DNA of 64,000 nt from Marsupella aquatica. Taxonomy: Eukaryota; Plantae; Marchantiophyta. The stretch's first letter is position 1. The number at the start of each line of letters is the position of its first letter. A model generated the notes under the pieces. The model did no database searches, was not told the DNA's origin, and worked only from the letters and a program-made list of their open reading frames with translations. Below are positions 34,111-61,076 of the stretch, in pieces. Location of the stretch: NCBI GenBank assembly GCA_973895155.1, contig OZ316891.1, positions 5,489,708 to 5,553,707 of the forward strand, written 5' to 3'. Both the position numbers and the translations under genes were made by a program.

Positions 34111-35708
34111 TGTTGTACATTAGTTAGAAATGATGGAAATTTTATAAATTTTAAACTTTTTCTAACTCAAGGTACAATCTAGTTACCTTTTGTAGCAATT
34201 TAGATCAACTGAACACTTTACCTAATGTTATGCTTCATCGGAGGCTATTCTATATTGGACAAGGATCGCGAATATAAATCCTTGCTCTTTACATGCTACC
34301 AAGAAAGAAGACTGGACATCATTGGAGAAGCAATGCAGACTAGAAGATTCAAGAACCGGCCTCATTGGCCTATTTAGTTAAATAGCTATCATGGTCAGAA
34401 AAGTCTCATACTTTTTCAGGAGGTAGTAGTTGCGTAGTAGAATTATCCCTGCAAGTTTCATCTCAAACCGACATGTGGTTTGAAAGTTAGAATTAATTTA
34501 GTTTTGCTGTTTTTTGCATAGCCGCGACTTCGCCGACGCTTTGTGAAGCGTCCCTTGTATTTTTGGACGCTTTGAAAAGCGTCCACCCAAGACCACGACG
34601 CTTTCTGAAACGTCCACCACCCAACCAGTTGTACTCCGATGCTCTGCAATCCACATGAGGAGCGACGCCCACAGAAGAGTCTGCTACCCCGAAGGTGACC
34701 TCGACACTGTGACGCCCACTGAAGCGTCCCGCCCGGAGCCCAGAAAATGGACGCTGCGACCAAAACCTCGAAATTCAGCCGACGCTTTCTGAAGCGTCCA
34801 TAAAAGTCCTTTGTAATTTTGGACGTTTTCTGAAGCGTCCACTATGTTCCCGACACTTAGAAAAATTTTCAGTTTTTGCAATTTTATAACACCGTGCCCC
34901 TTTTACCGATTTATTTGAGGCACTTAGAGATCTCAGAAAAGTCTGAAACTTTACCAGCATAGAGACTATATGTAGTAGAGTACCCTAGAAAAGTTTCAAC
35001 TCATTCCGACTCTTAGTTTAGAAGTCAAAATTAGATTAAAATCACTGTTTATTAGTTTTACCGCAAACACCGACGCTTTGCAAAGCGTCCGCTCAAACCT
35101 CGACGCTTTCTGAAGCGTCCCCTGCATTTTTGACACTTTCAGCAGTGTCCATTCACTTTTCAAGGATGACCGTCATTAAGTTTATTCAAGACCCTTTAGA
35201 TATGAAAGGGCATGTCCTTTCAGTATCTCAGTCTCCTTGGGTTCCTGCTAGCCTATATGAAGTAGAATTTGTGTCATTTTCAAGTGTGAAGAAATAAAGT
35301 AGTGCTTGTGGCATGTGCTGCAGCACTGGAATCACCTTTGCTTGCAAATACAAAGGAATTCTTCTCCCTTCCTTGGTCTGAATGATTGAGAGTTTAGATC
35401 ATTGAAGTAAAATTACTTGTATGAAGTTGAATCTCAGAAGTATGAGGGAATAGATTCCTTAAGTGGTGACAACCCATCTTCTTGAGTTCTTGATGCATAG
35501 TTTTTGGCGTGACATTGCTTGTGCATGGGATGCAAAGATTGTTACTCACCAATTACCTGTGACTTCAATTTGATCATGATGGTGTTTATTATTCGTGACT
35601 CAGAGTACCGACTGGATATCGAAGTGATTGATTACTAGTTTCTTCTGAGTACCTTTGGAAGGAAAAGTTGAGACGTGTTGACGGCATTTTAGTAATCATC
35701 CTAGTACA
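34111..35708. mobile_element. Possible solo LTR carrying GACGCTT-N4-AAGCGTC palindromes
   Basis: TG...CA ends with only a 4-bp flanking match (GTAA). Non-coding. Contains an LTR-type GAAACTTT...AAAGTTTCAACTCATTCC segment and nine short palindromes. Boundaries tentative. Confidence 0.35.
34535..35149. repeat. Nine copies of an 18-bp interrupted palindrome GACGCTT-N4-AAGCGTC
   Basis: Copies at 34535, 34566, 34597, 34711, 34781, 34822, 35072, 35102 and 35132 (some degenerate). Confidence 0.9.
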
Positions 35709-36180: not shown

Positions 36181-36754
36181 CTACTCCGAAGGCCGCAAAG
36201 AACTTGCAACCTTCTCTTTGAAGACATCAGTCCAACGTGCCATCTGCTCGGCTGTCGTTTTTGCTGCAGTGGTAATTGTTGTGGCCAAAATAACTCCTTC
36301 CTGCTCTTGAATTTTACACTCATGCTCTCGGATCTCAAAATCACGCTGGGCCATTTCAGCACAAGTGTTGGCCATGCTTTTGAAAGTGTCTGTTTGCCGC
36401 TCCCAGACTTGGCTACCTTCCTGTGACAGGGCCCCAAACCCGGTAGTAACTTAGTGATAACTTATAATTGCATATATAAGTAGAAAGACAAGTAGGTGTA
36501 GCAAAAGTGTTTGGATTTTTAATTTTTTTTAGTTTTTGTTAGTTCTAATAAATTGATGCGACAACCGGAGGCCAGAGTTGAGAGGGATGTTGGGCGGAGA
36601 TGGATGACAATGGAGCCATTGAGGGGGTACAAGGAGGCCAAAAGGCAGCCCAAGGACTTGGAGGCCAAGGTGTGGGCATCTTGGAGGGGTGCGGGCTGGT
36701 CGGAGGCTCCACGTAAGGCGCAAAACGGGAAGAATGACCAAAATATAGAAACAT
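36181..36754 (-). pseudogene. Fragmentary spliced ORF (Pro-rich exon plus coiled-coil exon); possible C-terminus of the Harbinger-2 partner protein
   Basis: HSSRFAPY..PWPPSPW exon and MANTCAEMAQRDFEIREHECKIQEQE exon, convergent with the 32683-34029 transposase. No Myb domain visible. Confidence 0.35.
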
Positions 36755-36886
36755 TGAAACTTAAAACAGACGTTGTTGCGCTAGTACTATTCCAAACATG
36801 GTCATGTTTGGATTCATTTTGAAGCCCTCAATGAGCCCCATGCAAAATTGAGGTTCTCTAGTTGATTTTAGGTCTATATCAAACAG

Positions 36887-38406
36887 TGACATCTCAAGGG
36901 AACTCAACGCCTGTAAAACGGTAAACTAGACAATCTTGGAGTAGGGATGGTGGGAGGGCCCTTAGAAGGAAGGGACTCCCACAATTTCCCTTCCTCAATC
37001 CGTAGTTTCCCACAATTTTCCTTCCCCATTCCATAGGAGGGCACTCCGTAGAAGAACACATTCGTAGAAAGGGCCCCCACACTTTCTTCCTCCCCTTTTT
37101 CTCTATTCTCACTTATGAGGTTCCCACCCATTCCTAAACCCTAAACCCTATTGTGCTTGCTTTCAACATGTGTATGGACCTTGGTTGTACGAACATCAGT
37201 TTTTTGGCCATCTCAAAATCAGGAGTCTACGGGCTTTTTGGAAAGAGCTCGCCGAGCTGAATCCAACAATGTGTCACACGACCAAAATGGAGCTAAGACG
37301 AGGGAGATCCAACAGATCACGTTTTTCGAGAATACGGGGGTTTTGAGGCCGTACGCACGTCCGTACTACAGGAGGTCCCGACTTTGCAAGGGAAAGAGGA
37401 GGTAACAGCACATACGGGGAACCATGATCCGTGTTTTGCAAAGTCGGGGCCCCCTGGTGTTGTATGGACGAAATAGAGGGAGACGGTGCCCCGTAAAACC
37501 TTAAATGATCATATCTCGGCCGTTTGACCTCCGTTTTGTGCACCGTTTACGGAGCCGTGATCAGGAAGAGGAGGGGCTCCTCAGATATGTTTTCAGAAGT
37601 GGATTCTGAGAAAATTTTACTTTCGACAATTGTAGGGGACCTCTCCTTTTATGGCGGACCGGTGGTGGCGATCAAGAGGATTGAGACTCGTAGGTAGGGT
37701 AATAATATAGGATAGGAAATGGTGGACTCAAGTGAGTCCTTGTTTAGCGGAGTGGTATTCACTCCAGATGAGAGTGATGGGGAGGCCAACTCATGGGGCT
37801 CAAGCCATGGTACCGTGAGTCATGAGGAAGACTAGGGTGGTCGTACGGACTTGGTCGTACGACCTTTTGATTTTGAAACTTTTTGAAAGTGAGCACTCAA
37901 GGGCTTGTTGGAAAGAGCTCGCGGAGCTGATTCCAACAAGAGGCGGCGCTCCTCAAACGGAGCCAGGATGAGAAAGTTAGAGCCCCGCGAAGTTGATCGG
38001 TACGGGATACTAAAATGACCATAACTTGGTCGTCCGATGTCCGTTTTGGGAGCGGTTTGAGAATTCATGATCAAGAGGAGCAAGGCTACCCAGGGATGTG
38101 CTCAGAGGTGCAATCAGAGTGACACCAAGTTTTGGCAATTGTGGGGTCCCTTGTATTTTTGCGGTTTACGGAGTGATTTTGTAGGGCACCGTCAAAGGCA
38201 CCATCGGCCCCTTGGTTAGGTAGAGTTTAGGGGTATGTGTATGCCGCATAGCGCTAGGTTTTAGTTGACATTTATCTGTTGGTGATAGGATTTTAGGCGG
38301 CACCGCTAGGAGAAAGTGGTGGCATCCAAGTGCCATTGGGTGTTTGGGTGTGTGGGGTTAAGTGGTATTTAGGGGGAGAGCCCCGGAGTAGTGTGGGGGG
38401 AATTCA
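36887..38406. mobile_element. LTR-like or TE-terminal non-coding segment with internal duplication
   Basis: Two copies of GGAAAGAGCTCGC.GAGCTGA.TCCAAC (~37240, ~37910) and of AAATGA.CATA.CT.GG.CGT..TCCGTTTTG (~37503, ~38012). TG..CA ends but no TSD found. Confidence 0.4.
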
Positions 38407-38463
38407 CTTTTAAGTTAGAAGGGAAGGATAGCGGATAGCATTAAACATAGTGACGGACCAAAC

Positions 38464-38844
38464 GAGAAGTGTGACCACGGCGTATCCTGTTTGGGATTCA
38501 ATCTTAAAAAATCCAGTTTTGGCATGACAAAACATAAGAAAATGAGGTTGGATGCGAAGTGGGGTATCCCACTTTGCATTCATCGTCTGAATCCAAACCT
38601 CTCGGTTGGAAAAGGCAGGAAATTCAAGGTTGAATATGAAGTGGGATACCGCATATCTCACTTCGGATTCATTAGTGAATCCCATTAATTTCATAATCGA
38701 AATATAGAAACTTCAGTGTTGAATGCGAAGTGGGATACCCGGTATCCCATTTGGTATTCAACCTATGAATATCAATAAGGTTCGGTCTGAAAGGCAAAGG
38801 TTGAATGCAAAGTGGGATACCGCGTATCCCATTGGGTATTGAGT
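38464..38844. repeat. Palindrome array A: 5 copies of ~45-bp hairpin (GTTGAATGCGAAGTGGGATAC-N3-GTATCCCAYTTNGYATTCAAC)
   Basis: Copies at 38464 (degenerate), 38547 (central deletion), 38629, 38718 and 38800. Followed by splice acceptor TTTTTTGCAG at 38901. Confidence 0.9.
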
Positions 38845-39000
38845 TGCAATAGTTTCTCTGCAATGACAAAAGATATCTTATTGATTGGGAGTTTTTTGCA
38901 GGCTAGGTTCAGAGCAGCACCAACAGAATCCCGTCACTTTTGAGTGACAGACTTATAAAGCTTTAGCTTTCTTGGAGACCTACATTTTCCAGTGAGTTCA

Positions 39001-39327
39001 ATGACGGTCCATACTCAAAACCAAGATAAACGTGCTCGTCTATTGTATAAGAGATTAGTTGAACTCAAAGTGCTTCCTCCTGGATTAGGAGCGGTTTGGA
39101 TGGAAGGCGTAGATCCTCAAGATAGTTTGAATCCGCTCCGAATTGAGTTTTGCAAAAAGAATGAGCAAGGAGTTCCAATTCGGTCAAGGATTTGTTTGAG
39201 TGGTTGTCTGCACCCCGTTGATTCTTCTTGTAATTATTGTCGTGATGATCGTAACAAGTATCATCGATTGGCATACTTGTGTTGTCAGATTTGGAACGAG
39301 GATCCTTGGGTTAACTCTTCCCATTGA
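39001..39327 (+). CDS. Small Cys-rich orphan ORF inside the ParB-MTase block
   Basis: Open 108-codon frame, MTVHTQ...ICLSGCLHPVDSSCNYC...LCCQIW, downstream of the acceptor at 38901. No family recognised. Confidence 0.35.
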   Translation: MTVHTQNQDKRARLLYKRLVELKVLPPGLGAVWMEGVDPQDSLNPLRIEFCKKNEQGVPIRSRICLSGCLHPVDSSCNYCRDDRNKYHRLAYLCCQIWNEDPWVNSSH

Positions 39328-39520
39328 ATCTTCTTGATTCTTGTTGTTGAGTTTCGTTGAGCATTTTTGGCTCACAAATATTTTGCCAATATGTTTTTCT
39401 TTTGATCAAAGAAATAAAAGAATTCTTTTGATCCCTGTTTTGTAGGTTCCTCAGAAAGAGATCTTCTCCATTTTCTTTACTACTCTAGGTATTCCTTTCT
39501 TCTTGTTAAACTGGTTTGGA

Positions 39521-40075
39521 ATGGCCGTCCCTGAGAATCTAATCTTTGCGAGGTTAGTGACCGTATTTGAGAAAGAGAAGAAGAAACAAATTGAGCAGAA
39601 ACATCGACAAACTAAATCCGGACTACTTTTGGATGGACTTCCTGATGAGATTGTTGAAACTTGCATATGGCCCATTTTGAAAGTGTCTTGCATTGAGGAC
39701 AAATTTGATTCATCCAAGATCTCAACTGAAGAAAGACTTGGACGATTAAAAAAAATGGTTTGGCTTGGATCCACTTCAAAGAAATGAAACCAGCTTGTAG
39801 TTTGTACACGAGTATGGGGTCTCCTTTGACTTGCACGAAGCCAGTTTGAGGGATTAAATGAAATGCTTGCTAGCATTCCCCATGGAGACACACTTCAGAA
39901 TGTTCATCTCGCAATTTTTTTTAGGATGGAAACTCCGAATCTTCCCCCAATTGATTTCCTTGGTTTATTTTTGACATCAGAACTAAGTCAATTTCAAGAG
40001 GACTGGCTCAATCTAGAGAAAGATCTGCAAGCCAGATTAGTGGAAATATATGGACAAACTTTAGGGTTAGCTTGA
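39521..40075 (+). pseudogene. F-box-like protein, with in-frame stops
   Basis: LLLDGLPDEIVETCIWPIL ... WLGSTSKK*NQLV fits the F-box pattern LPxE..I..L...VxKxW..L (W replaced by TGA at 39785). Frame continues to 40075 through one more stop. Confidence 0.6.
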
Positions 40076-40377
40076 TTCCCGTTCTTTCAATCATGTTTAG
40101 GTCTGCTCCTCTTGAGCTCCTTGTAAAACTATTTTTCATGAATTGATTTACTATCTTTCGTGGCATTTCGTACCAAACTCATTTACTATCTCGTTGCCAA
40201 TTGAATTCGTACAAGGGTATCCCATATCGGATTGCACCTATAACAAATTTTGCCATATTTCCAACTATTTTCCAAGACTCTTTGGTGCGACTATTTGCCA
40301 CGACTATTTGCTTCGACCTTGCCGCGACTATTTCCCGCGACTAATCTCAGGAGTTAGCCTTGTTCAGGAGGAGAAAG

Positions 40378-40385
40378 TATAAATA
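40378..40385 (+). promoter_or_regulatory. TATA box
   Basis: TATAAATA about 30 bp before a CTCATT initiator-like site, preceded by repeated CGACTATTT motifs (40262-40345) and followed by donor AG|GTGAGA at 40503. Confidence 0.55.
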
Positions 40386-40546
40386 AGAGTGCCCTCCTCA
40401 AAAAGTTACGCTCATTTCTCCTCACTCGCGGTACCTCTATAACTTGCTGAATCCCCAATCTCCATAGATATTCGTATTCACTCGGACACATTCCATTAAC
40501 AGGTGAGAATCATGTAGTCTCCTCAATTTTTGGATCAAACTAGTAG

Positions 40547-40948
40547 GATGAATCCGAAGTGGGATACGCGGTATCCCACTTCGCATTCACTTAGGCCAAA
40601 TTCGCTTTTGAGATTAAAAACGCATGGAGAATCAAGGTTGAATGCGAAGCGAGATACCGTGTATCCCGCTTCGCATTCAACATGAAAATCTCAAGAGTTT
40701 TCTGAATCCTCAACGCGATAAAGGGGTGAATCCGATGTGGGATATGCGGTATCCCGCTTAGCATTCAACACCCAAATCTCAAGATTTCTGAACAAAAGAG
40801 ACGGATAGGAGCGATTGGATACTAAGTGGGATACCGTGTATCTCACTTGGTATTCAACATAGTGATCTTAGGCGTTTCAAAGAAAATAGGCAAAAAGTGA
40901 AACATTGAATGCGAGATGGGATACCGCGTATCCCATCTCGCATTCATA
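40547..40948. repeat. Palindrome array B: 5 copies of 45-bp hairpin at 88-90-bp period, inside a 5'-UTR intron (40503-41027)
   Basis: Copies at 40547, 40637, 40725, 40814 and 40904, with 43-45-bp divergent spacers. Paired substitutions in both arms of copies 2 and 5. Confidence 0.95.
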
Positions 40949-41028
40949 TATACTATTATGGTCTTGTTGCCTTTGACCTCGATCATATTAGGCTTGAAAT
41001 TCTTACATATGGTTTTCTTTTCTTCAGG

Positions 41029-41613
41029 ATGTCGAACAAGTCAAATGCTTCTGGTTCCACGGACTCTTTCCGGCAAGCCATCATTGATGAAATCTGGAAA
41101 AAGGATCTCTATGTGGAGGAGAAATTCCTCAGGAACATGTGGTAGTTGCATGATGCTCATGAGCTTGATCTTCATAGAGCGTATGCTGGCCCAGCCTTAT
41201 GGTTGATTGTTGTGAAGGGTAAGGAGCATTGCCACCAAGGGTTGGTGATTGACACGGCCGAGGCAGACATTGTAGACTCGAAAACACAAAAATTGAAAAT
41301 GGTGCCAATGTTTCTTTGCATTGGTCTTGACAAGACCTTTTCTGTGTTGGTCCTAAACTATGAAAAACTTGATCGAGTCTCGATGAATATATTTCCAGAT
41401 GATTCGATTACCAAGCTTGTGGCGGAGGCACCTGATGTAGATTCATTTTCGTACTGGTGCTTGAGTTATGTCTTCACATCTTGGAAGGTGGTGCGGGACT
41501 TCACCAAAATTATGTATCGTTCAGTGGTAGGGGAAGACTTTAAGCGTTGTCGTGATTTTCTCTTAAGTTATAAAAAATTGTTTGTTTTAATATGCTATAG
41601 ATTATATAAGTAA
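41029..41613 (+). pseudogene. Orphan ~194-aa protein with one in-frame stop
   Basis: ATG immediately after acceptor TCTTCAG|G (41027). MSNKSNASG...RNMW*LHDAHE...YRLYK in a single frame. Family not recognised. Confidence 0.5.
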
Positions 41614-41680
41614 TTTAGTAGTTAGATTATTAAATTTAAACTTTATTAAACTTTTTTAGCTATATTAACGGACTATAGAA

Positions 41681-41925
41681 GTTCCACCAATGCATGTGAG
41701 TAGTTCCACCAACTACAATAATATTCACCAACGCATAGTGGTTCTACCAACGCACAGTAGGTCCACCAGCGCATAGTAGTTCTACCAACGCACAGTAGGT
41801 CCACCAGCGCATAGTAGTTCCACCAGCACATAGTAGTTCTACCAACGCATAGTAGGTCCACCAACGCATAGTAGTTCCACCAACGCATGGTAGTTCCACC
41901 TACTAAAAGTAGTTTCACCAACTAT
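41681..41925. repeat. Minisatellite, 19-bp unit (CCACCAACGCATAGTAGTT), about 12 copies
   Basis: Directly visible tandem array; explains the repetitive antisense ORF 41673-41921. Confidence 0.95.
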
Positions 41926-42017
41926 GAATAGTACTAGCACACTCTTAGGTATTAGATGTTTGACACTTGGCCTTCATCCAAGTGCTTGGGCTTGATCCAT
42001 GCCCTCTTGGTGTGCAC

Positions 42018-42025
42018 TATAAATA
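42018..42025 (+). promoter_or_regulatory. TATA box upstream of the ParB-MTase-Ulp1 gene
   Basis: TATAAATA followed about 30 bp later by CCTCATT, the same layout as the 40378 promoter. Confidence 0.5.
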
Positions 42026-42242
42026 AAGTGGTGAGGGCACTCTCCCCTCATTCCGCAGTGTTTATCATTCAAGGTTGTGAAGCTCTTTTGTGCCTTGAAC
42101 ATAGTAGTGGGGCGTCCTTTGGCCCGGATAGCAAAGGAATGAGTGGTAGATTTATATATGGGACCTTAGGGAATAAGGTTTCTTTGGGAATATAGGGGTG
42201 GGGCGTCCTTTGGCCCGGATAGCGAAGGAATAGAAGAGCCAT

Positions 42243-45200
42243 CATGAATCCAGGAGAGAGAGTTATCCCTGATCTTCCCCTTCGTAATCCATTTTTGATT
42301 AGAGTCCATCTTTTAGACAAACCATCTATGAGGCAACATCTAACCTATCATTTTGGAGCTTAGTTTGCAACTGCTGTTATGGTTTCTAACGAGCCAATAA
42401 TATACCCAGTGGTGTCGTACCGAGAGGAGTGGGAGTGCATCATCTTTGTCTTTTATTGAAGTCATGGATTTGAATAGGAGTCCGAATGATATTCCTGTTT
42501 CATTTTCTCTTGGAGATATTAGGATCATATGTCGTAAGAAAACTAATTTTCGTGATGTGTTGGTCCGCAAGTATGGTGAAATAGGGTTTAACAGTATTTT
42601 AGTTTCACCTGAACCTTTCTTAATACCCACTACCCTTGTTACTAGAATTATCATTTTGATTTTAGTGTAGAACTTATAAGCATGCAAGGTTAACTTCAAA
42701 AGAGCCAACATGCTCTTGCCAGAAAACACGGTCACCCGGACAGCGTCCAGAGAGAACTCCATTGAAGTTGAAGATACACAGGCCAACTAATCCCTCTGGG
42801 ACGGTGGAGGATTCCCAGACAACAACAACAAAAGAGAAGGCAGTCTCCGAGCCGACAAAGAGGAAGAAAGCGCAAGATATCTCTGGTGGAAAATCTAGTG
42901 AACATTTCGGTGCAACTGTCTCAAAAGATGCTGCCAAAAAAAAGATGAAGTTGGATCGATGAGAAATCCGAAAGAGAGTAGTGTCTGCGCCTGCGAGTGT
43001 TGTGTCAACAGCTCCACCTTTGCCTTTGAGATTGGTAGGTGAGATTCCTCCAACTTCTCAAGGTGGGCCATCGATCACATCCAAGGGGAAGGGTCCAATG
43101 ATTGTTGAGAGGAAAGAAGATTTGACGAATAAACTGACTACGGCCCTGCAACGTGAAAAGACGTTGGTTGTAAGGGAAGAAGTGTCTCGCTTAATGGAGA
43201 CAAAAAGAGTTCAGAAGACCACCGTCATTCTGAAAACAACAAACCTCCTGTTGGTCAATGACATGAATGATCAGAACTCCACGTTGGTTCGGACTGTTGA
43301 TCGTTTGCACGTGGAGAATATCAAAACTTTGATGAAGTTGAATCCAACAAATTTCACTACGCCATTTGTGTTGTTTGTTATTCCGGAAGATTGTCCATCG
43401 GTTAAAGATTGGGACCCGGCCAAGGCATCAACCTGGAGATATTGGGTAATTGGGGGTAATCATGGAGCTCGAGCTAAAAGAGAACTGTTTGAGGCTTATA
43501 TGGTCGAGAAATCTTCAATGAACTTCAAGCATGGGTCTATGTAGGGCTTACAAGGGACGATGTTCAAAAACTCAGTATTCAACACAATATTGACCAGGAG
43601 TATCAAAAAAAGATGAACAATATTGATCAAATCCGAACAATGCATAAGGTCTTCCTTGCTCGAGGCATGCAAAACACAAAAGAGACTCGAGAGGCCTGAG
43701 CGTCGGAGGTATGTTTTGATGGCTTCATTCCAAGGGTTGGAAAAACACTGAAGAAGCACGAACCTCTTTTTCAGATATCATTTAGATCTGGAAAAGTTTG
43801 GAACCTCCAAGACCATCTCTTTGACATGTGGAATAGATTCGAGATAAAGGGGCAGAACAAACAAAAATCCCCGGTGAAGATACTGAAAAAAGGGAAGCGA
43901 AAGGCCACGCCCGTCGTGAAACCTTTGAACAAGCTAGCAAGGGGGCTCGCTTTGACGCCTTGGAGAGCGATCCAAGGGATTGAGCAGGACAGATTTTTGG
44001 AATCCCTTCTTCTTCGAGTCAAGGATCGAATGATCAGTCTTGAGCAGATGGCAAAAGAGGCTGAAAGTTACAAGAAGCTTGTGAAGATCAGTAAACTCTT
44101 TGTACAATTGTCTGGCCAACCAGATTGGACAACCTATAAATAAATGTTTCCAAAGGAGACGTAGTTTTCAGAGCTTGAAAGATGGAGCGGCAAACTCTCA
44201 GATGTGGTAAGTTATTCAAACGTGCGTTTCGAAGGTTGAATACCGAATGGGATATACGTATCCCATTTGGGATTCAACCCTCATTTTTGGCTCATTCATG
44301 TTCTTTCTTTGAGTTTCCTTCCTGGGTTTTGGTTGTCTTAGCGTTGTTTCTTTGATTTTCCTTGGTTTGAATCTGAAGGGGGATACGGCGTATCCCATTT
44401 GGGATTCAACTCTGGATTTCTATTTTGTCTTTGAGTTTCTTCGGGTGAAATCCGAAATGGGATACCGCATATCCCTTTCGGGATTCAAGCTAGAGTTTTG
44501 GAGGTTACGAGCGTGATTCTCCAGGTTTGTTTTGCGGAATACCTAATGGGATACTCGGTATCCCTCTTGGTATTCAATGCATAGTTTTATCATTGTAACT
44601 TAGGTGTCCTTTTGTTTTGTAGTTGAAAGCCTTCTCAAAGAAGAAGAATAAAACGGATGTCGGAAATGATTTTGAGGAGACTCTAGAGGAGGAGCTCAGT
44701 TTGGATGTTATCCCCCCTGGTTTTAAGAATATAGTTCAAGAAGCTATTGAGACTGCTCAGGCGGAATCAAGCGACCACCGTTGGAAAAATTATGATGGAA
44801 ATTTCATCAACTATACTCTCCACTGTGAAGATGTTTGCGCGCTTGATAGGTTCTTGGAGAAACGGCCTTACACACTTACAATCGCAGACATTCCTTATGG
44901 ATTCAATGCCGCCGGCTCCGAGAATGATGAAATTCCATTTTCGGAGACAGATATTATTGATATGGTCAAATGTTTTGCCAAGGTGACAACTTCACCAATG
45001 TGGAGGTTTGTTGTTATTCATTCTCTGCAACAAAGTGTCTCCGTTTTGAATGCTTTGGGAAAGACATGCAATGTTGGAGTTGAGGCAGGAATTTGGGAGA
45101 AGCCAAATGTACATGCACGTACACCCCTCCGGGAACAGGCTAGCTTGGGCGTTTGAGAACTGGTCCATCGGGTACTATAATGAAGGTGGTATCAGGTCTA

Positions 45201-46754
45201 GGGAAATGTATAATTTTGAGCATGATGAGAAAAGAATCAGCATCATCAAGGTACCTTGTGTTACCAAGAAATGTGTAACACCATTAGGGAAGTAGTGAAT
45301 CTGTATCAGAAGCCGATAGCCCTCGCAGACTAGTTTATCAAACATTTTAGTGAAGAAGGAGATTGGATTGTTGATTTATGTGCCGGAAGTGGGTCTACTT
45401 CGTGTGGGGCTTTGTTGGCAAAGCGACATGTGACAGCCATAGAGTTGAGTGCTCAACAAATAGACTGTATCTAGACTTGATTAGTCACGTTGGATGAATC
45501 ATGGGACTTGAATGAGGAAGCAATTGAGGAGGGTATAGGGCCGATGAGTTTGAGATACAACCACCAATTGGTGGTATGACGAGCACTCTCACCACCAGAA
45601 CTTGCATCATTACAACTGCGGCCGAGAATGATGATGATGTTGATGAGGAGGAGGAGGGGGAAGAGGAAGCAGAAGCTCCACCACTAGATCTTGGCTCATT
45701 CCTTGAGGTGTAGAGATTACTTTGAGATAGTTTGTCGCAAATGAGATTGCCCAAATTGTATATGAACTTCCGGAAATATTGAAAGAGATTTATATGTTCT
45801 TATGTGACAATAATGTCCTTGCAGGATCCATCAAAGGAGGTTATTGAATTGAAATGTGTTCTTCATAGATTTATGCACAATCCTTCTATTGGTCATCTTC
45901 TCAATCAAGAAACACTGGAACAACTTGAACCCGACCAATATTTGGGTGACAAAATTATAGAATTTTACCCAGAGTCCCAAATTGAAGAACATGGAGATCT
46001 TGCTCCAATGGTAAACACATTATCCTCATTTTTTTATCCTTGGATGGTTTCAAGGATTGAAATAGAACCAACACATGAATCTTTAGCAGAATCTATACTG
46101 AAAATGCCAGGTTATTACAAGCCTCCATTTTCCAAGATTCAGGTTATTTTTATGCCAATTCACATGAGTGGGCATTGGAGTTTGGTTTTCATATGTTTGG
46201 ATAGATCTCAATCTTTGATCCAAATGTATCATCTAGACTCACTTGCTGGTCTGCATGAAACTCGTCTAATCGAATCAGCATTGAAAAGATGAAGACTTAA
46301 CTTTATCTTCTACTATTTATTTTTTATATGAGATTATTTATTCATGTGATTATAAATGTCACTGACTAAGGAATTATTTTCAATGACTTGCAGATATTTC
46401 ACAATAGAATGAGAACTATTTTTTGGAAAAGTGTCATTGGGTGTTATGGAGATGTGGAATCCAAAGGTATGTGATTTGTTTCATTTAAAAAAAAAAAATT
46501 AGTTGGAAAATACATTTATGAATCGTACTAAAATACAACATGTTTTTTATCAAGTGCCCCAACAACCAAATACCATAGATTGTGGTTTATTTGTCCTACA
46601 CAACATGGATGAAATTAGAGTTCAATGGAGTAATTTAAAATATATATTCGTAGAGTCTTTATTAACAAAAGATTGGTACAACCTCACACAAGCATGTCAC
46701 CTGAGAAAGGTGATAAGAGATAGAGTTATCAAATTAATGCATGTATCTACATAA
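42243..46754 (+). pseudogene. Spliced multidomain gene: ParB/Srx-like domain + beta-class DNA N6A/N4C methyltransferase + acidic linker + Ulp1/C48 SUMO protease (decayed)
   Basis: ParB-like: LVRTVDRLHVENIK..PFVLFV..YWVIGGNHGARA (GGNH 43452-43463)..AWVYVGLTRDDVQKLSIQHN. Phase-0 intron 44207-44622. MTase: LTIADIPYG (44887-44898), IWEKPN, NLYQKPIAL (45307), SEEGDWIVDLCAGSGST..RHVTAIEL (45373-45393). Phase-0 intron 45708-45824. Ulp1: FMPIHMSGHWSLV (H 46173), HLDSL, VPQQPNTIDCGLFV (C 46581). Several stops and frameshifts; 5' start uncertain. Confidence 0.8.
44235..44578. repeat. Palindrome array C: 4 copies inside the intron joining the ParB-like and MTase exons
   Basis: Copies at 44235, 44366, 44445 and 44534. 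Spacers are T-rich, suggesting inversion relative to the A-rich spacers of arrays A and B. Confidence 0.92.
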
Positions 46755-47540
46755 TTTAATTAATAAATGAAACTCAATCTTCTGAAGATATAGAACCTCG
46801 CTCTAAAATAGCAGCCTCTATAATCTCTATAATTCATGATGTTTCGTAATTAGAGTGCAAAGTAATCTCAATTTGAGTTTGTTATTTAGAGCTTAAAGCT
46901 CTTGGCTATGGCTTATGTCACATTTGTGTGGGTTCTGTGGGGTATGTGGGACCGTTTAGCTTGTTGAATCATTCTCTCATCCCAATAAATTTTTCAACAA
47001 TCATTTTTTGTACATTTGTATTTTTGGTTTCATGGTATACTGTGTTTTGTTTTGATTTTTGCACCCTAGCAAGAGTACAATCTGATTGGATCTATGGGTC
47101 CAGAGGGGCAGTAGAGTCTTTGGTCATTGAAACTCCTTCTTTGGTCATTGAAATTGCTTGTTGTTCAACATTGAACTCTAGTCTGTTTGGAAAGCCCTGA
47201 ACGAGTCAAAAAATTTTATTGAATCATCTTGTGATTATATGTTATCCAACTGTAATGGTTGTGGATCACTCAATGGATCAATATTGTACTCTTCGTCCTC
47301 ATCCTCATCCTCGATATAATCACTTTCAACTCCTACAAAAAAAATAACTATAATTAAATGAGATGATTTTTAATTATAATCATTATTCAAACATCATGAC
47401 TAAGTTGTTTTCTTTGTATTCAACGACTTTAGGTATTTGACAAGTGTGAATCGTGGTTTGTTCTATATTATGTCTCAAATATTTCACAAAACAAACAAGT
47501 TTGGGTTGTACTACTCTTTATGAGTAAGTATTTCTAACTT

Positions 47541-47839
47541 TTTTTGCCCTGAAAGATCTTTTTGAATTCCATTCACAAAGACAACATACAAATAGGTGGC
47601 CCCAAGGGCATCAACCAAAGGTCAGAAGTGCAAAAAGGTCGTGTGAGCCGGCACCAGGAGAGACGCAAAGCCTTTCAAGAGAAAGACAGCTAAACAAGAA
47701 ATTTAACTACCGCAGCGGGAGTAGCACACTCCATGAGACTGGCTAGTGCTAAGGTTCCGGCAAGGTTCCCTTCAATGGATCCGTGATAAACTTACTTTAC
47801 TATCGGTCTAACTGTAGTGAAGCATCTAATCCTATGGAA
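47541..47839 (-). mobile_element. Short non-LTR retroelement insertion (5'-truncated LINE or SINE) with TSD
   Basis: 15-bp direct repeat AAGTATTTCTAACTT at 47526-47540 and 47840-47854. Minus strand ends ...TTTCAGGGCAAAAAAA. Confidence 0.8.
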
Positions 47840-49763
47840 AAGTATTTCTAACTTTGCACCATGATACATTTTAAATATTTAATTTCAAAAATTAGACTTT
47901 GTTTAAGTTCTTGTTCAAACCATGGTTCATGGTTATTTAAATATTCTTATCAATCAATCACTTGATCTTAATCATTTCTATCATTCAATTCAAAACTTTA
48001 TGAATCAAGATTTAGGGTAGTATTATTCAAAAGTCATTCAAAACTCAAGTTTGTAAAAAAGGATAGATGTATTAACCTCCGAGTGGACCAGTTGATACAT
48101 CAATAGGTATTTTGTAGACTTTGTCATCTGACTTGAGAATCTTATCCAATCCATATTTTTTGATTACACGAGTAATACTACTATCACCAAGGTGGAGGGT
48201 ATCTTTGCAAAGCTCAATAATATCCTCTCTCATGTTCTTCTTGGCCAAATTATACTTTATTAATCTGGAAATGTTTTTTACTAAAATACTTCGCAGTTCA
48301 CACGGTGCTTCTTCAAGCTGATCAAGATTAGATTGGGTTGTCAAAGAAAAGAACTGTGTCAAGCTTTCGTGGATTGATTCGTTACAATATGCACGTACTC
48401 AAGTTCCCAATTTCTGCAAAACAATCAGAGTTTTAGTACATGCTTTGAATTGCAATAAATTGGATATATTAAATACACTTTTGAGGTTTTGGGTTTAGAA
48501 AAATACATACCAAAACAGAGTCAAAAAGTTGTTGGTCAAATTTTTGTGGTAATTTTCTCTGCTTCACATTCTTGATTGAATGACACCTTGAAGAATGCAT
48601 GTCACAAAAAGACAATTTGCATGATAAACTGTTAATGCCGAAGATGATGATTTAGATTTTGTCTGGTACTGTGTAATGAACGCAACATAATTTGGGTGAG
48701 CCAAAATGGAACTCATCACCAAAAAAATGTCGATTGCGTTTGAAATGACTACCACAACATGAGATGATTTTGACCCAATGACTACTGCAGCATCAAAAAA
48801 TACTTCATATGTCTTTTGTGTCATGGATACTCCAGTCATCATGGTGGCATCCAAGAATATGAATGTTGTCATGAAAAGAATATGAAATTGAAAAAAAATT
48901 CAATTTTTTTAACATCTTGTATAGTTTCATCCATAAGTTGAAAGTGGAATCTGTCATGTTCAAAATGAAAGGTCCAAGTTCACCTAGTCGGTACTTCTCA
49001 TCTTTGGCCCAAGGAATGACAATCATTGCTGCTTTCATAAAATCTTGTATAAAGACAAGTAAATCATTAAATAAGTATAAACCATGGTTCACACTAATTT
49101 ACTTTCACAATATATTGCATCAAAACAAATGAACAAAACTTTAGATTTTAGAGATTATGATTCATACCCTCCATTTTGAATCTTTGGTGCTGTTTGTTTT
49201 TTAGGGAGGATACTCATAACTTTTCTAAATATCCCTAACCTGCCTTGCAATGAGGAAAATTTGAGATTCATCCATGCTGTGTGATGAACATGATTTAATG
49301 TCTTAGATACTAGTCTCATCATCACCAAGTTCCCAGCCAAATTGTAAGGTGCCCAAAATATGACTACATCGATTGTAAAATATTTTTCGTGAATCTCTGG
49401 AGCCACTGGTTCATTATTCGAAAGTAACCGATAGGCTATAACAGTGTGCTGGCCACCAATTATCCAAAAATGATAATTGTCAATTTGATCAAGGATAGGT
49501 GGATTGTTGAGCATAGATGACGATCGCAACGGCAAGCCCATGAACCATCCAACGCACAATAGTCGACACAAGAGATACGTGGTTCACCTCCTTGAGACTA
49601 CATCCACAGGAACACACAAGAGAGCTTTACTGAACTCTAAGCCCGTCGACTATACCGAGTCTCCATAGTGTAAGCTCTCCCTATCTCTCAAGTGGCTCCA
49701 TAACAATGAGCCTTGGTTCTACCTCTCCAAGCACACGTGCCTCTTATGATATAGTGTGCAACT

Positions 49764-49848
49764 TAGTTGTACCTAATCATATAGTTGTACCTAACCACGT
49801 AGTTATACCAACCCACGTTGTTGTACCAACCACGTCATACCTAACCTA
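49764..49848. repeat. Short ~18-bp tandem repeat (TAGTTGTACCTAACCACG-like), 4-5 copies
   Basis: Directly visible in sequence. Confidence 0.75.
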
Positions 49849-52800
49849 GACATAAGAATAAATACCCAACATGGATGTGTCAGTGGAGTTCCAACATAGC
49901 CAACCTCATTGCTCCTACTCTCGGCCCAAAACACTTGGATCAGGAAACAAACCCGCTTCTCAAAGTTTACCAACGATTAAAATTTCATCGAGTTTGCAAG
50001 ATCTCTTGAGTAATCAGGATCATGACCTCTATATTTTACAACATTGGGTGTAATGTGACATTTTGAATTTTTAATATTAAAAACTTTACTATCAAAGATG
50101 TTTGCTTTCTTATAAGCACCATTGAAGCTCTTGCAAAGATCTCCTATGTTTTCTCCAATGATCAATTTTGGAAGTTTTCTTGTCTCAAACTTGGATTGTT
50201 TCTCTAGTTCCTCCTTCTTCCCAACATGAAATGTTTCTGTAAAAATGCATTTACCCCATTCCAAGATGGATAACACAAAACTCTCAATGGTTGTGCCGTT
50301 TGTGAGTATAGAAACTTTTGGGAAAGTGAGATTCCAAATGACTGAAAATGCCTATGGTGAGAAATTGCAATTGGCTTCCATGTATGTATGGCTAAACATC
50401 CCAAACATCTCTCTAGAAAAACAATAACAATGAGACCTCCTTTAGAGTGAGACCCTCGAGTAGTGCTCAAGTAGTAGACTTCTTTAAGTGAAGTATTTTT
50501 GGAGAATAGGTGGCATACACTCAGAGAAAAGAGACGATGGGTGCAAGTGAATGAATGTATGACATGTTTTAAAGGCATTGGGTTAGAACAATTTTAGTAT
50601 TGCTCCTTGGTTATATCATTTTATTGCAAACCCAAGGTCTACTCATGAAGCCTAAGGTCTTGCATGTTATTAGGAAAACTATAGCAATGCTCCAATTCTA
50701 ACATCAATATTTTTGCAAAAATAAATTAAACACCTGGAAGAAAATAAATTTACACACCGGAGTTCTTTGTGGTCAAATATATGCTACCTGGTTTTTTATG
50801 AGAATCAGATAACATATAAAAAAAGCGCACATCACCTATTCTATAGAATAAATTAGCACTTGGGTAACTTCCAAAATATTTTATAATTCTTGATTTGAGA
50901 ACCCTGCAAGAAAAAAAGTGAACAACCTTTCTAGAAAATAAAGATGGATTTTAGAACGTTGTGTTTTTTGTAAGTGTTAAAAATCCATGTGACAGCCTTG
51001 CATTAAGTGTCCATTACATTGTTGAATATGTTTTTCACTATTGTTTGTTACTAAACATCAAGAAATTAAAAAACTCATGATTATACCAGCAATGCACATT
51101 TTGTACTTGCCTTTCTTTTCATCCCCATGAAATATTGTAGTGGTACATGGTATGGACGAAGGATGCCGATATGCTAATTTGTAGATATTCTTGTATTATC
51201 ATCGTATAGTCGTACGATCGTGGTACGGTTGTACAGACATATCGAATCCAAAATGTCACCAAAATCAAAATTCCGTCACTAAAAAATTGTCAAATACTAA
51301 AGTATTTTTAATTCCTCATCCAGAGTCCAAATAAAAAAACCAACAATACTTTTTCAGCCTAGAATTATGAGAAGAATCTAAATATGTAATCTATTGCCAA
51401 TTCTATTAAACTCAAATTCTAGACTTTAAAGTTTTGAAGTGAATAAAATGCGAGATAAAGTGAATTTAGAGTTGACGAATGTATGATACACTTTATTAAT
51501 GGATTGAAAAACATAAAGCACAAACATAGATACTGTCCAACGAAAAAAACTGACCATTGCATATGTAATTGACAAAAACTCTAAGCAATTATCATCTCTA
51601 CTCTCTACGAGCAAGTAATCAATCAGTATCATATCCGAGTTTGCAGGAATCAAGAGGAAGAGAATCTCATCGTCTTTCTTTGTAGTGTGCTTCAGTAGTC
51701 TCTTGCCACACCACTTTGTAATCTGCAAAATTACAAAGGATGCAATAGAAGGGCATTAAAAGAAAAATTAAAAACTTTGAGAAGTGAATAAGACAAGGAA
51801 AGAAGCTCTCCCCTTAGTACCTGAGATTTTTAGTCCACGTTGGAATGGATAGTCTTTAATCTTGGGGCCCCTTCTTAGGACAGACAGTCATTGATAGTGG
51901 GGCGATAATCTAGTCATTAAGGCAAGGTGTCGGAATAGAATCGTGAGGAGGGGAAAATTGAAGAAAAATAAAGAAACAGAAGGAACATTAGGAACATCGA
52001 GAAAACAAGGAACATAAACAAGCGAATGCGGCATGATTGAAACAATTCAGAGATATTTTCAGTGGCCATTGGTAGTTTTTGAGTCCAGACCTAAGGTGAT
52101 AGTTTCATGTTCTAATAGTCCACCTCGCTGATATAGAGGCGATTAAGGATGCAGGGCAGGTTGAGAGCTTCTGCTTAGCTTTAGTTTGGAATTGCAATTG
52201 TCTGGCTACGAATCCTCATCCACAGAGAGTTGTCCACGTCGGATGTCCTCACAGATATGACACTGGTCAGATGTGTGCAAGATCATTCGAAGTTGGGTCG
52301 CGCTATAGTAGCAATTGTATGCCACCTAATTAGTAAAAATTATCGTCAAATAATTGATTATAATTCTTAAGTCATTTTTTGGCAAAAAATATTACAATGT
52401 GACTGTATTGCGCTAATTCAAACTCAACACCGCAACGTTTATGAAAAATATTTTGTATGTTGTTTGAAAGATCATCTCCTTTGCACATTCTTTCCATGTT
52501 AAGAAAATCATAAATCTAGGTATAAGATCCCAAATTCATCTCCCCATGAAATTTTTGCAATATCAGTTTACATATGTATAACCATACTAAAATACAAAAG
52601 TGATAGAATTTGAAAAGAGAACATTGAGTTTCACTGATAGACTAAAATTTTGGGGGTTTCACTTCCATAGAATTGACACATCACGTGCGACAAAACACAA
52701 ATTGAATAATTTTATTAGTTTTGAGGAAAAACTTATAGAATTTTATATTTTAGGGTATTATGAATCTAATTTGTAATCTAGCTTGTAAAAAATTTAGAGT

Positions 52801-53787
52801 TATTTAAATCAAAATTTGAAAATTTGAAAATTTTATAGGATTAAAAAAACCTTAGTTTTTATATTTTAATGGATGTAGGGCTTAAAGACGTCACAAGTGA
52901 TAAGGACGTCTATGTAATGAGACCCTAAAACCAAAATTAATTCATTTTGTGATAAGATTGATAGAATATCATCTTTTCATTATACCAAAAGAAATCTATT
53001 TTCCTCATGGTAGTTCTTAGAAGAAAGTTTTTGTATTCTTCTCTTTGTGTTGAAAAATCTATAGTACAATGAATAAAAAATTAAATTCTTCTAATTTTGA
53101 AACAAATAACCATCCAATTTTAAAGTGCATCAGTGTTGAAAATGATATCATTTGATAAATGATGTCCAGATCATCTTTGAATAGAACATGTGCTTAATTA
53201 GGTCTTTCATGTTTTTGGAATATTTTTGTTTGGTTTATCATTCATAAAAGAATAATATAACTCATAAATATTGACATCATGTTAAATTATAGCATTACCC
53301 TTCAAATGATTGTCCAACCAACGAGTCATTAAATCAAGTAAAACATCTTTATCCAAAATAGTATAATCTTCTTGAATGTATAATAGATATCATTTACTAT
53401 ATGATTGAATAAAAAGTAATGTATTCTTTTCTTATTGAACACACTTTTTTATTATCATTTATTGGTGTAATATTTGCCTTTGAAAAAGTAATGTAGTGTT
53501 GAAAGGTATATATAATCCATAATTTATATATACTTACAAAGATTTTTACATGTGATAATGACATTTGTGGATAAAAATTGTGATAAAAATTATTTGTAAC
53601 AACAAATTGATGAAAAAATTAAATTTATTTATTTTATTGATATTTTTGGGTAGCATCTAGCGCTAGCAAAAAACTATCTTTGGATATTAGGTTGGCTTTT
53701 ACATCAAGGGACCAGAATAGGTAATTTTCTCCCCCCCAATGGTTAAGGAGAGAAAGTTTAGTTTCTCTATTGTAAGTTACTATGATT

Positions 53788-53852
53788 CTAGGGTTAGGGT
53801 TAGGTCTAGGTTTTAGAGTTAAGATTAAGATTATGGTTAAGTTTAGGTCTAA
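53788..53852. repeat. Degenerate TTAGGG-like 6-mer array
   Basis: CTAGGGTTAGGGTTAGGTCTAGGTTTTAGAGTTAAGATTAAGATTATGGTTAAGTTTAGG. Confidence 0.6.
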
Positions 53853-56844
53853 CGTATATGATAATGTATTCAAGGAAATAAAATGGTTTTGTTTAATGTT
53901 GATGATTAGTTTTATGTGTTCTTGGTTAAGGATAGTTATGAGTTTTGTGAGCTTTCGGGAAATTAATGTATGAATTTTGTCTTTTCGTATTTGATTTTAA
54001 GGTTTTTTTATTAAGATAAGATTTCTTTTTGTTAACTCTAAATGTGGTTAGGTTAATGAAGTTTTTTAAAAACTTTATTTTTAGATTTTTTTTCTTCAAT
54101 CAATGATAGGTTTAGAAAAAATGAAATTTATGATAAATTTATGATTAGGTTTTATTGCGATTCTTGGTTAAGTGCGCGGATTCCTTTGTAAAAAAAATGT
54201 GTCTTTGTTATATGGGTTGCGGTTATGAAGGGTGTTCAGTTATGTGTATTTTCCTTGGTTAAGTATACATTTTTCTTTATCTCTAGATATTTCTTTGACA
54301 AATTTTGCACTTAAGAAGGATTTTGCACTTAGTGCTACTCGAGGTTTTCTTGACTTTTTGCTTGTGATGTTGAGTAATTTGTTTGTGACTGATTCTCTGT
54401 GCTCTTGTTCCCCTTGTTCCAATGCATTTTTTTTGGTCTCCACTTTTACCTCGTTTCCTTGGACTGGTTTCTTTCAATCTTCAATAGAGTTGTAAGTATC
54501 ATCTCCTTGATATTTGCAGCTTTCCTCAATCTCACGTTCCCTTCATTTTCAAAAATAAAGGCCTTCTTTGTTGTTTTGTGCTCGTGCATCAATTATTCCC
54601 TTTTTTCATGGCTTCACTGCTGCGTCGGTGATTATTGTGTTGTCTTCTCATGAGGTTTCCATCCCTCAAATTTTCTTCAATTCTTTTTGCTATCTGGTTA
54701 TGAGTCTCTTTGTAAGGTCGGGCTTCTCTATTGAGTCCTAATGCATCATTTGTTCTCTGTAGGATGTGATGTCGGCCCTTTCAGATCTTCCCTTGATTGA
54801 ATTTTTTTTATTATGCTCTGCTTTTATTCAATCAGGTCTCTTTGATAGGATTAATCGACTTTAACCCAAGCCTTATTTTGTAGAAACATTTGCACACACA
54901 TTCAATCTACAAATCGCTTTCTTGTCTTTCCTTTTTGTCAATTTTTTTTTCTGCTATGGCTGGCCTATTTGTGATTTGGAGTCAATGTGCAATGACTGAG
55001 GTCTGCAATTTTGATTTGGCCGTGTGTTCCGGGCCACTCTCGTGTTTTAATTCACGCTATTTCTCTGTGTTTGGTGTTTTTTTCTCAGTTCTTGGCATCG
55101 GTAAATTGCTTTCTTTTGTGTGGGTGAGACTCTATTAATCAATTCATTGTTATTACAAGATTTGTTGCACAGGTTCACCTGGTTTCTTTATTGTTTAACT
55201 CTTATTCTGGTCGTGAGGGGTCAATGCAATCTATTGATTGCAATTTGCAAATCGTTCTTTCTGTGTTTTTACCCTCTAATTTGTGCTTTAGGTCTCTACT
55301 ATCTTCATTGCTTTATGCTTTCTTCTTCCCTAGTGGTTTAGGTTTTTCATCTAATTGTAGTATCCGTTGTCAATCCGCCATAGTTTTTTTTTCTTTTTGA
55401 TCCCTAAAAGTGTTAGATTTCAAGGGATACCATAGGGAGGTGAGAGTGGTAATAGGAAGTTTCAACCGTGTTGACTCCTTGGTGTCTTTATATATGTGTA
55501 TGGGATAAAGTATTATCCTATGGATACATTTTATCTCCATTGGGTTATTAGATAACTAGACTAGTATGTCTTACCTTATGGTACCTTACAACCTAATATC
55601 ATATTTCATATATCATATGATACCATATCATGATAAGGTCTATTTTATTTCCAAATTTAATAGTTATGATATGTCATCCAATATTAATGAGTGAGTGTGT
55701 GAACATCCTGTCCAATCGTGTACAAAGATTTCTCATTTTTCAAAATTGACCATATGGTTTCAATCTCATAGAATATAGTATTATTGTTAAATATTGATTG
55801 GCATGAATAAGGCACTTGTGCAATAGGCACAACCCATGGGTTCTATTGCTTGGGGCCAAGCCTTTCATAAGGTCTCCCCCTCAAGTTATCATATATTTTT
55901 CTTTTCTGCTTGAATATATGTAGTAGGCATCCATTTGCTTCCATGTGCAATAGGCATAGAGATTTTATGTGCAGTAGGCACCCTAAAGAAAACATCTCCC
56001 CCTGAATTTATGAAATTGATTGGACAATTCTTACGTGGAGAAATTTCCAGTGTTTTTCGTTCTTATATCTTTCCTTCCCCTTTCATGATATGTTTGTTCC
56101 TTAAATCAATTTTGGCATTGCATGAAATGTCATGGTGGGTAAATCGGGTATTTATAAGATTTTTGGGCATATGAAATAGTGTGATTTCTATTATAAAAAA
56201 TATTTATTTTCCTTCTCTAGTTAATATCGTTCTTTATGAGAAGAAATCATTGTGTATTAACATGCAGTAGTTGAGGAGGAACTCCCCTTTGGCTTCTTTG
56301 GTCTTCTGTGTGGCCTCCTTAAGTTTTTTTTTAAGTACTTCTTGTCTGGTCCCTCTCTCAATGCGTCGAATGCAGTCTTTGTGAAATTAATCTGCTCTTT
56401 GTGTCCATTCCACTCCTGATTTTCAGATGGTACTCATTCTCTTTGCAAAACTTGCTTCTCTCTTGCCTTGGGGAATTCTTTGTTGTGCTAGGATTGATGG
56501 GTTATGGTGTTTGTTCTCTTCTAAAAAATTTCTAGAATGCATTTCTTCTGTAGGGTATTGAATCTTCTAGATTTAATTTAAATTCTATTCAATTTTGCTC
56601 GTTCTCTTCTCTCCATTGATCTGTAAATATGAACGCCAATAACTCCTTCTCTATTGTTGTGCTTATGATCAATGGTGAATGTGGACAACCCCAACGTTCT
56701 ATCCAAAACATCACAAATTACCTACAATCTTTGTCGACTAGTCGAGATGATTTCTAGAATGCAAAATATCACACTCTAAATTCCTCAAATAAATTCCATT
56801 CCAAATGAGAAAATAATAAGTGAGCCCCTCATAAGTTTTGATGC

Positions 56845-57027
56845 CTCAAATCTTTAATTGTTAAATTTCTTCAATCCTTCAATCGTTTGATCAATGAATT
56901 TCTCAAATCCTTAATTGTTAAATTTCTTCAATCCTTCAATCGTTCGATCAATGAATTTTTCAAATCCTTAATTGTTAAATTCTTCAATCCTTCAATCGTT
57001 CAATCAATGATTTCTCAAATCCTTCAA
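56845..57027. repeat. Tandem repeat, 57-bp unit x3
   Basis: (C/T)TCAAATC(C/T)TTAATTGTTAAATTTCTTCAATCCTTCAATCGTT... at 56845, 56902 and 56959. Confidence 0.92.
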
Positions 57028-60914: not shown

Positions 60915-61076
60915 CCTTGAAGTGCATTTAAGGTCTATTAATGGTCTGGATCACTCAGGTCCCATCAACTCATCAAGTGCCTTTAAGTGCATTTAAGGTC
61001 TATTAATGGTCTGGAAGGTCCCATCAAGTGCATTTAAGGCCTATTAAAGCTCTGAATCACTCAGGTCCCATCAAGT
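60915..61076. repeat. Degenerate local repeats upstream of PIMT
   Basis: AAGTGCATTTAAGG(T/C)CTATTAA x3 and AGGTCCCATCAA x3. Confidence 0.75.

Follow-up and report, generated by a model that had tools for sequence, protein, structure and literature searches.

The parS sites of bacterial ParB and the sites of Noc (NBS) are 16-bp palindromes. In multicellular eukaryotes N6-methyladenine (6mA) is disputed, and it is said to have been lost from major multicellular lineages (10.64898/2026.05.21.726589). The two known eukaryotic enzymes that make N4-methylcytosine (4mC), MpDN4MT1 and N4CMT, bear SPPY or TSPPY (10.1101/2021.02.12.428880; PMC8885841). The eukaryotic clades linked to the ParB-Tls loci, found in haptophytes, chlorophytes and chytrids, are unpermuted (PMC4738411), and the target motifs of VANC differ between related elements (PMC5735166). 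Here we describe a locus in 64,000 nucleotides of the liverwort Marsupella aquatica (assembly GCA_973895155.1, contig OZ316891.1, positions 5,489,708 to 5,553,707; this whole stretch is called the window). The gene in question represents a real and apparently undescribed green-plant family in which a ParB-like domain is fused to a beta-class methyltransferase and in which each element has its own palindromes. Our literature search, which did not extend to subscription papers, preprint supplements or the Cell version of the Marchantia study, found no description of this ParB-methyltransferase family. The best explanation, to which we assign a probability of roughly 0.58, is that a transposon-borne ParB-like methyltransferase binds the non-coding palindromes of its own element and likely writes 6mA on or around them.

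At the locus, a repeated plant gene is present as a dead copy. All on the plus strand, it encodes a beta-class amino-methyltransferase preceded by an N-terminal domain and a domain predicted to be ParB-like. The methyltransferase exon (44623-45713) contains DIPY, QKP and DLCAGSG, continues into an acidic tail and ends at a TAG at 45711-45713. Read through its stops, 44623-45549 matched N6_N4_Mtase (PF01555) with an expectation value (E) of 2e-8 and 34.9 bits against a cut-off of 26.7, the match being confined to the C-terminal half. Motif IV (ADIPYG/DIPY, 44887) lies ahead of QKP (45307) and of motif I (DLCAGSG, 45373); the beta-class assignment made in an earlier note on the same DNA, which relied on this order, thus holds. 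In all 5 metagenome loci with related genes (L001-L005), a ParB-side exon, a phase-0 intron at one position and a methyltransferase exon follow one another, in agreement with the intron-containing ParB-methyltransferase fusion proposed in that note. The intron at this position in the window (intron 1, 44207-44622, phase 0, GTAAGT..TAG) is read across in exact register by protein P0043. A second phase-0 intron had been proposed at 45708-45824; both introns have GT-AG ends, but only the first is kept in the 5 loci, and the second is only possible. Neither was among the joints listed for sibling contigs from four public runs and two organisms, contigs whose kind is unrecorded.

Intron 1 is preceded by an exon (42743-44206) that encodes a low-complexity linker and then a ParB-like N-domain with a helical or helix-turn-helix (HTH) region at about 43140-44206. 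The 5' part of the gene (41029-41547) encodes an N-terminal domain without family assignment and has one stop, at 41143. Its frame was 23% identical to the first exon of L001 (E 3e-10) and also matched that of L003 (E 9e-7), which places the gene start near 41029. Between these two parts lies a secondary, solo-LTR-like (long terminal repeat) insertion at 41548-42742 with TG..CA ends, a 4-bp GCGT duplication and an internal 19-bp tandem repeat; in 2 of the 4 runs, sibling contigs lack it and join 41544 to 42745. Because of these ends, the duplication and its absence from siblings, the ATG at 42243 that the earlier note took as the gene start falls outside the gene, within the 1.2-kb insertion, and was rejected. 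The copy is clearly dead: besides the insertion, it has at least nine stops, four frameshifts and two damaged splice sites. The lesions include stops at 42960, 43697, 44141 and 44162 and a frameshift near 43480-43500 in the ParB-side exon, and frameshifts near 45117, 45286 and 45548 with three in-domain stops in the methyltransferase exon. The family is multi-copy and has better-preserved siblings, in line with the earlier note: among contigs of the four runs are siblings that lack several of the lesions (those at 45117, 45286, 45332, 45548 and 46412). The motifs named beforehand (VIGGNHGARA, YVGLTRDD..HN, ADIPYG, QKP, DLCAGSG, the acidic tract and H/D/Q/C of Ulp1) are all present.

The window contains 12 copies of a 17-bp palindrome, GGGATAC-N2-3-GTATCCC, all within 38643-44564, a feature that the earlier note had overlooked. 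With a fixed-gap pattern 11 were counted, compared to a mean of 0.2 and a maximum of 3 in mononucleotide shuffles of the window. They are located in two intergenic clusters and in intron 1; none of the 12 is in coding DNA, which accounts for about 67% of the element. Cluster 1 (38628-38845) has 3 core copies, GGGATAC-N3-GTATCCC, each within an imperfect palindrome of about 41 bp and spaced by 82-89 bp, with weaker copies to its left from 38481. Cluster 2 (40545-40950) has 5 copies spaced by 88-90 bp immediately upstream of the gene, and cluster 3 (44249-44564) has 4 copies inside intron 1. Introns and spacers of L001, L002, L004 and L005 contain 29 copies of another palindrome, GCGA(G/T)AC-N2-GT(C/A)TCGC, and those of L003 contain 20 copies of CCGAT-N6-ATCGG; only 1 of these 49 falls within rough exon limits. 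The three types do not cross-match, and their half-sites have S-S-G-A-K in common. Each element type thus bears its own 16-17-bp palindrome, almost only in non-coding DNA.

A ParB/Srx-type fold followed by an HTH region is predicted for the protein encoded next to these sites, judging from a model of a relative. For the L003 exon, which is 40-50% identical to the window, AlphaFold gave a model with a predicted local distance difference test score (pLDDT) of 73, and Foldseek returned 12 matches at E<=0.001, of which the top ten were all Noc or ParB (best E 2.8e-5). HTH_ParB matched below threshold in 6 members of a 26-member alignment, at a best E of 7e-4. The Pfam ParB N-domain matched 0 of the 26, and no ParB family matched the window's own pieces; for the ParB/Srx-like domain proposed earlier, the predicted fold gave support and the Pfam profile did not. 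Motif variants on the ParB side of the family include GGNHGARA, GGGHxREA and GGNHTR. In the window, a degenerate multi-copy frame on the minus strand at 48000-50350 has a second ParB/Srx-looking motif, WIIGGQH; a short insertion of very high copy number, containing an 18-bp tandem repeat, interrupts this frame at about 49505-49870. The ParB-like motif in it (49182-49508, minus) was rejected as a family member, with a family-profile probability of 2%.

The palindromes could instead be the sites of a transposase or another element protein, with the ParB-like part being a nuclease- or NTPase-type (nucleoside triphosphatase) module and the methyltransferase acting non-specifically or only binding DNA. 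We consider this doubtful. Further Foldseek matches of the L003 model do include sulfiredoxin and phage ParB-like or partitioning proteins, as this alternative would have it, yet the top matches are the palindrome-binding Noc and ParB rather than sulfiredoxin. Palindromes also occur in the flanks between genes, the ParB arginine patch is altered, and methyltransferases borne by DIRS elements have been termed probably inactive (PMC4738411); motifs IV, I and QKP, however, are retained across green plants under purifying selection.

Motif IV could be found in 84 of 166 proteins scanned and began with D in 80 of these; SPPY occurred in none. The aspartate in motif IV and the SPPY/TSPPY of the known 4mC enzymes suggest that 6mA is the likelier product, and on the strength of this motif we would favor it over 4mC with fair confidence. 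Sequence searches of the PDB gave best E values of 0.03-0.2, including weak matches to an N4C enzyme (E 0.03-0.07). A relative matched PHROG 67 (E 3e-15), and the nearest neighbors by features were mostly viral, in phage methyltransferase clusters. The five nearest phage methyltransferases, found by common patterns, all have DIPY, are stand-alone and are 22-35% identical. These similarities agree with the prokaryote- or phage-type relatives anticipated in the earlier note, and the methyltransferase is likely of prokaryotic or phage descent. Uptake of a ready-made phage ParB-methyltransferase, also anticipated there, found no support: besides the five being stand-alone, no phage record spans both parts. 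A scan of prokaryotic genomes yielded 13 pattern matches and no relatives, and a scan of viral contigs with the ParB exon yielded no match.

It is very unlikely, in our estimation, that the cassette is what remains of a DNA virus that became endogenised, or of a Polinton-like element, and not of a cut-and-paste transposon. The phage clusters among its closest feature matches, the intron-free fusions on some contigs and the several small genes with palindrome arrays between them would all suit a viral source. Against this, the gene has spliceosomal introns, no capsid, polymerase or packaging gene was noticed by eye in the window or the five loci, and the viral contig scans brought up distant phage methyltransferases only (22-35%) and nothing for the ParB exon.

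Open relatives of the methyltransferase exon number 17, at 37-66% identity, and 23 relatives were found for the L003 ParB exon. A methyltransferase profile search returned 1115 proteins at E<=0.001; of 150 of these matches that were listed, 21 were also matched by the ParB-exon profile. Single uninterrupted ParB-methyltransferase frames were found on unannotated contigs (P0077, P0112, P0113 and P0118). Among 20 proteins looked up, 9 were from named species: Chara braunii (4), Adiantum nelumboides (2), Ginkgo biloba, Riccia sorocarpa and Cymbomonas tetramitiformis. The Cymbomonas protein is a methyltransferase only, with no ParB-profile match, and those of Chara, Ginkgo, Adiantum and Riccia have both parts. 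The family is thus older and wider than one element, extending over prasinophyte, charophyte and land-plant genomes. Synonymous sites were saturated or the ratio of nonsynonymous to synonymous substitution rates (dN/dS) was 0.05-0.10 in all 15 pairs of relatives, indicating purifying selection. The Chara braunii model P0065 (1825 aa) has two tandem ParB-like plus methyltransferase units and may be two fused neighboring copies. Four intron-free ParB-like plus methyltransferase frames with DPPY or DLPY (P0112, P0113, P0118 and P0172) stand outside the land-plant group and are candidates for a bridge to the prokaryotic source.

A quick tree was built from 54 domain-spanning rows, 7 of them prokaryote or phage, out of 176 searched sequences and 2 added by hand, with L001-L003 not included. 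The window fell in a 17-row clade of environmental sequences (Shimodaira-Hasegawa-like approximate likelihood ratio test, SH-aLRT, 99) nested in a 26-row land-plant group with Ginkgo and Riccia (SH-aLRT 95), with Chara and Cymbomonas outside. Because prokaryote and phage rows are few and the remainder was picked by a plant-built profile, this tree cannot name the donor or prove monophyly. Its roughly host-like order is what would be expected of an old green-plant host gene family, like Marchantia DN4MT1, that has a germ-line methylation role and was passively amplified in repeat-rich DNA. The many divergent paralogues and broken copies, the presence of five distinct copies within a single assembly series, the repeat arrays and the linkage to DUF7869 described below all make such an origin improbable; domesticated copies of the family may still be around.

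The family gene is likely carried by a DNA transposon because of the DUF7869 neighbor in a relative, the copy number and the repeat layout. The convergent neighbor of L002 matched DUF7869 with an E of 1.7e-23; the 3' end of a DUF7869 gene also adjoins L005, and a short piece of one lies beside L003. DUF7869 is presumably a transposase, since its GHTH-D-IDQ-FS motif resembles the DDD transposases of the Sola type. Over a 1.6-kb stretch, the four runs gave 106-400 variant contigs each, as a multi-copy element would. Two upstream plus-strand frames with multi-copy cover lie between the first two palindrome clusters (38959-40069), one Cys-rich (38959-39327) and one F-box-looking by eye (39446-40069). 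Neither had a convincing Pfam match, and both are likely cargo of the same element. A very high-copy repeat block at 36500-38400, directly left of the palindrome-bearing element, hides the left end of the element, and on the right the window copy seems truncated, with loose ends at 46826 and 46969. The Harbinger-like genes at about 2.3-3.7 kb and 32.7-33.9 kb were rejected as the element's transposase, being outside the palindrome-bearing block.

Downstream of the methyltransferase, the plus strand encodes a Ulp1/C48 protease (45825-46754) in three exons, 45825-46288, 46394-46466 and 46554-46754, with a stop at 46410. The region 45825-46752 matched Peptidase_C48 with an E of 7e-16, and H, D, Q and C were placed by eye at about 46173, 46236, 46563 and 46581, so that the Ulp1 domain with its full catalytic set is as the earlier note described it. 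The two extra introns (46289-46393 and 46467-46553) each have one altered splice dinucleotide in the window copy. The same note had the ParB-like, methyltransferase and Ulp1 parts as one fusion protein, and as an architecture of the family this found no support: Ulp1 is absent from all 5 loci and from all 47 longer proteins (46 chosen by length from the 150 listed profile matches, plus P0043), and the window has a stop at the family's normal end. A weak search for longer fused forms found none among 2438 candidates. Most likely, Ulp1 is a later addition in the window's sub-family, either standing as its own frame or attached through an optional splice past the ancestral stop.

Within this sub-family, a single transcript may nevertheless yield a ParB-methyltransferase-Ulp1 protein that would couple DNA marking to SUMO removal from silencing factors, a possibility that we regard as tentative and somewhat less probable than its opposite. 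The segment at 45708-45824, a possible intron 2 or a spacer, begins and ends with canonical GT-AG in phase 0, and its TTGCAG acceptor is strong; its donor, GTGTAG, overlies the family stop, is the weakest in the family and begins 3 nt, or one codon, before the TAG, which itself falls 8 residues past the D-L motif. Just about 100 nt separate the TAG from the Ulp1 frame, leaving scant space for a terminator and a promoter, but an in-frame ATG is present at 45813. In both organisms, siblings about 80-90% identical retain tail, spacer and Ulp1 together, and their spacers have diverged in the middle and are conserved at the ends. A precedent exists in the VANC-Ulp1 (KIU) genes of VANDAL elements (PMC13317346). 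In contrast, P0008, P0012, P0018 and P0061 terminate exactly at the position of the window's TAG, and 12 of 14 distinct full-tail relatives (3 cluster duplicates excluded) stop 8-12 residues past the D-L motif, the window's tail reading D-L-G-S-F-L-E-V-stop compared to D-L-N-E-M-L-L-G-stop and similar in relatives. The lack of Ulp1 in the 5 loci and of Peptidase_C48 in the 47 proteins also argues against one protein, and in L002, L003 and L005 a convergent gene lies 300-340 nt past the stop.

Taken together, these data are best explained by an element that marks itself. By analogy with ParB-parS, Noc-NBS and the VANC targets, the ParB/HTH part would bind the element's own palindromes; the methyltransferase part, to judge from its motif IV aspartate, would put 6mA at or near them. 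The purpose may be self-marking against host silencing by 5-methylcytosine (5mC), which would keep the element active, or marking of self for the transposase, and Ulp1 would add SUMO removal in the window's sub-family. Several points weigh against this explanation. The palindromes are concentrated in few clusters, so that copies are not independent; they amount to three types in all, and L001, L002, L004 and L005 share one type and one assembly series. DIPY deviates from DPPY, and enzymes with a D motif can produce 4mC. The AlphaFold model of the methyltransferase was poor (pLDDT 37), and the Foldseek TM-scores (template modelling) were low, at 0.23-0.29 of the query. The arginine motif of CTP-binding (cytidine triphosphate) ParB, whose arginine patch is GxxRxxA, reads GERRxRA, and GGNHGARA is without the arginines of GERRxRA. 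No transposase was found in the window element, and no terminal inverted repeat or target duplication was found between 37001-38700 and 46701-64000. A literature search gave nothing on DUF7869, whose tentative identity as a transposase comes from a motif resemblance.

A stronger version, which we think unlikely, is a complete nuclear ParB-parS device: a clamp would load at the element's palindromes, slide and drag the adenine methyltransferase along, painting 6mA against 5mC silencing, with a spliced-on SUMO protease helping in the window's sub-family. If true, land plants would have a source of sequence-specific 6mA, and ParB-parS would exist as a nuclear system in eukaryotes. For the self-marking element itself, a conserved bacterial-type predicted writer in charophytes, liverworts, ferns and Ginkgo, together with a candidate target that recurs many times in the element's non-coding DNA, offers a precise place and motif at which to seek 6mA or 4mC. 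Beside MT-A70 enzymes and MpDN4MT1, it would be a third way for plants to obtain amino-methylated DNA, and possibly a new anti-silencing strategy of transposons. The naturally diverged pairs of protein and palindrome are a potential source for targeted epigenetic tools.

The rest of the window is plant nuclear DNA, with a glutathione-transferase-family gene, a purple acid phosphatase, two dioxygenases and Harbinger-type transposase remnants; this gene content confirms the plant genome that the earlier note had named as host. Broken PIF/Harbinger-type transposase genes (Plant_tran, DDE_Tnp_4) are located at 2337-3695 (minus) and 32680-33870 (plus). To the right of the latter, at 34530-35132, is a dispersed repeat family (GACGCTTT..AAGCGTC, 7 copies), possibly the Harbinger gene's subterminal motifs. 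The divergent 2-oxoglutarate dioxygenase gene pair at 23900-29400 is an inverted duplication. The glutathione-transferase-family gene (19982-20905, minus) is intron-free, has an N-terminal extension resembling a plastid transit peptide and reads by eye as a dehydroascorbate reductase.

Among described systems, prokaryotic and phage beta-class methyltransferases (PF01555; M.RsrI, PHROG 67/498) share with the plant family the order of motif IV before I, QKP and, in the 5 phage relatives, DIPY. The plant family differs in being eukaryotic and intron-containing, in its fused ParB-like and HTH parts and acidic tail, and in that no restriction partner was seen. Phage ParB-methyltransferase fusions of the ParB-Tls loci likewise have a ParB-type domain N-terminal to an amino-methyltransferase (PMC4738411); DIPY had no matches in that paper's supplement. 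MpDN4MT1 and rotifer N4CMT are also bacterial-derived beta-class enzymes in eukaryotes (10.1101/2021.02.12.428880; PMC8885841), but these 4mC enzymes have (T)SPPY, are encoded by host genes and either lack an extra domain or carry a chromodomain, whereas D-x-P-Y and a ParB-like domain mark the plant family, going by published descriptions. DIRS and LTR retrotransposons carrying DAM are mobile and have prokaryote-like adenine methyltransferases proposed to gain 6mA (10.64898/2026.05.21.726589). Unlike the plant elements, they are retrotransposons with a DAM-class domain, and the text mentions ParB nowhere and DNA transposons once, generically. VANDAL elements with VANC and KAONASHI-Ulp1 (PMC5735166; PMC13317346) resemble the window's element in their Ulp1 cargo and in short element-specific motifs in introns and upstream regions. 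However, VANC is a 5mC remover and not a methyltransferase, VANDALs are Mutator-like, and their motifs are non-palindromic 9-mers; the element's frames gave no Pfam match to Mutator transposase or VANC domains, and the likeness is one of presumed mode of working only. Compared to bacterial ParB-parS and Noc-NBS, the plant family is eukaryotic, has an altered arginine patch and a fused enzyme and lacks ParA, but it shares with them a predicted fold and clustered palindromes of 16-17 bp.

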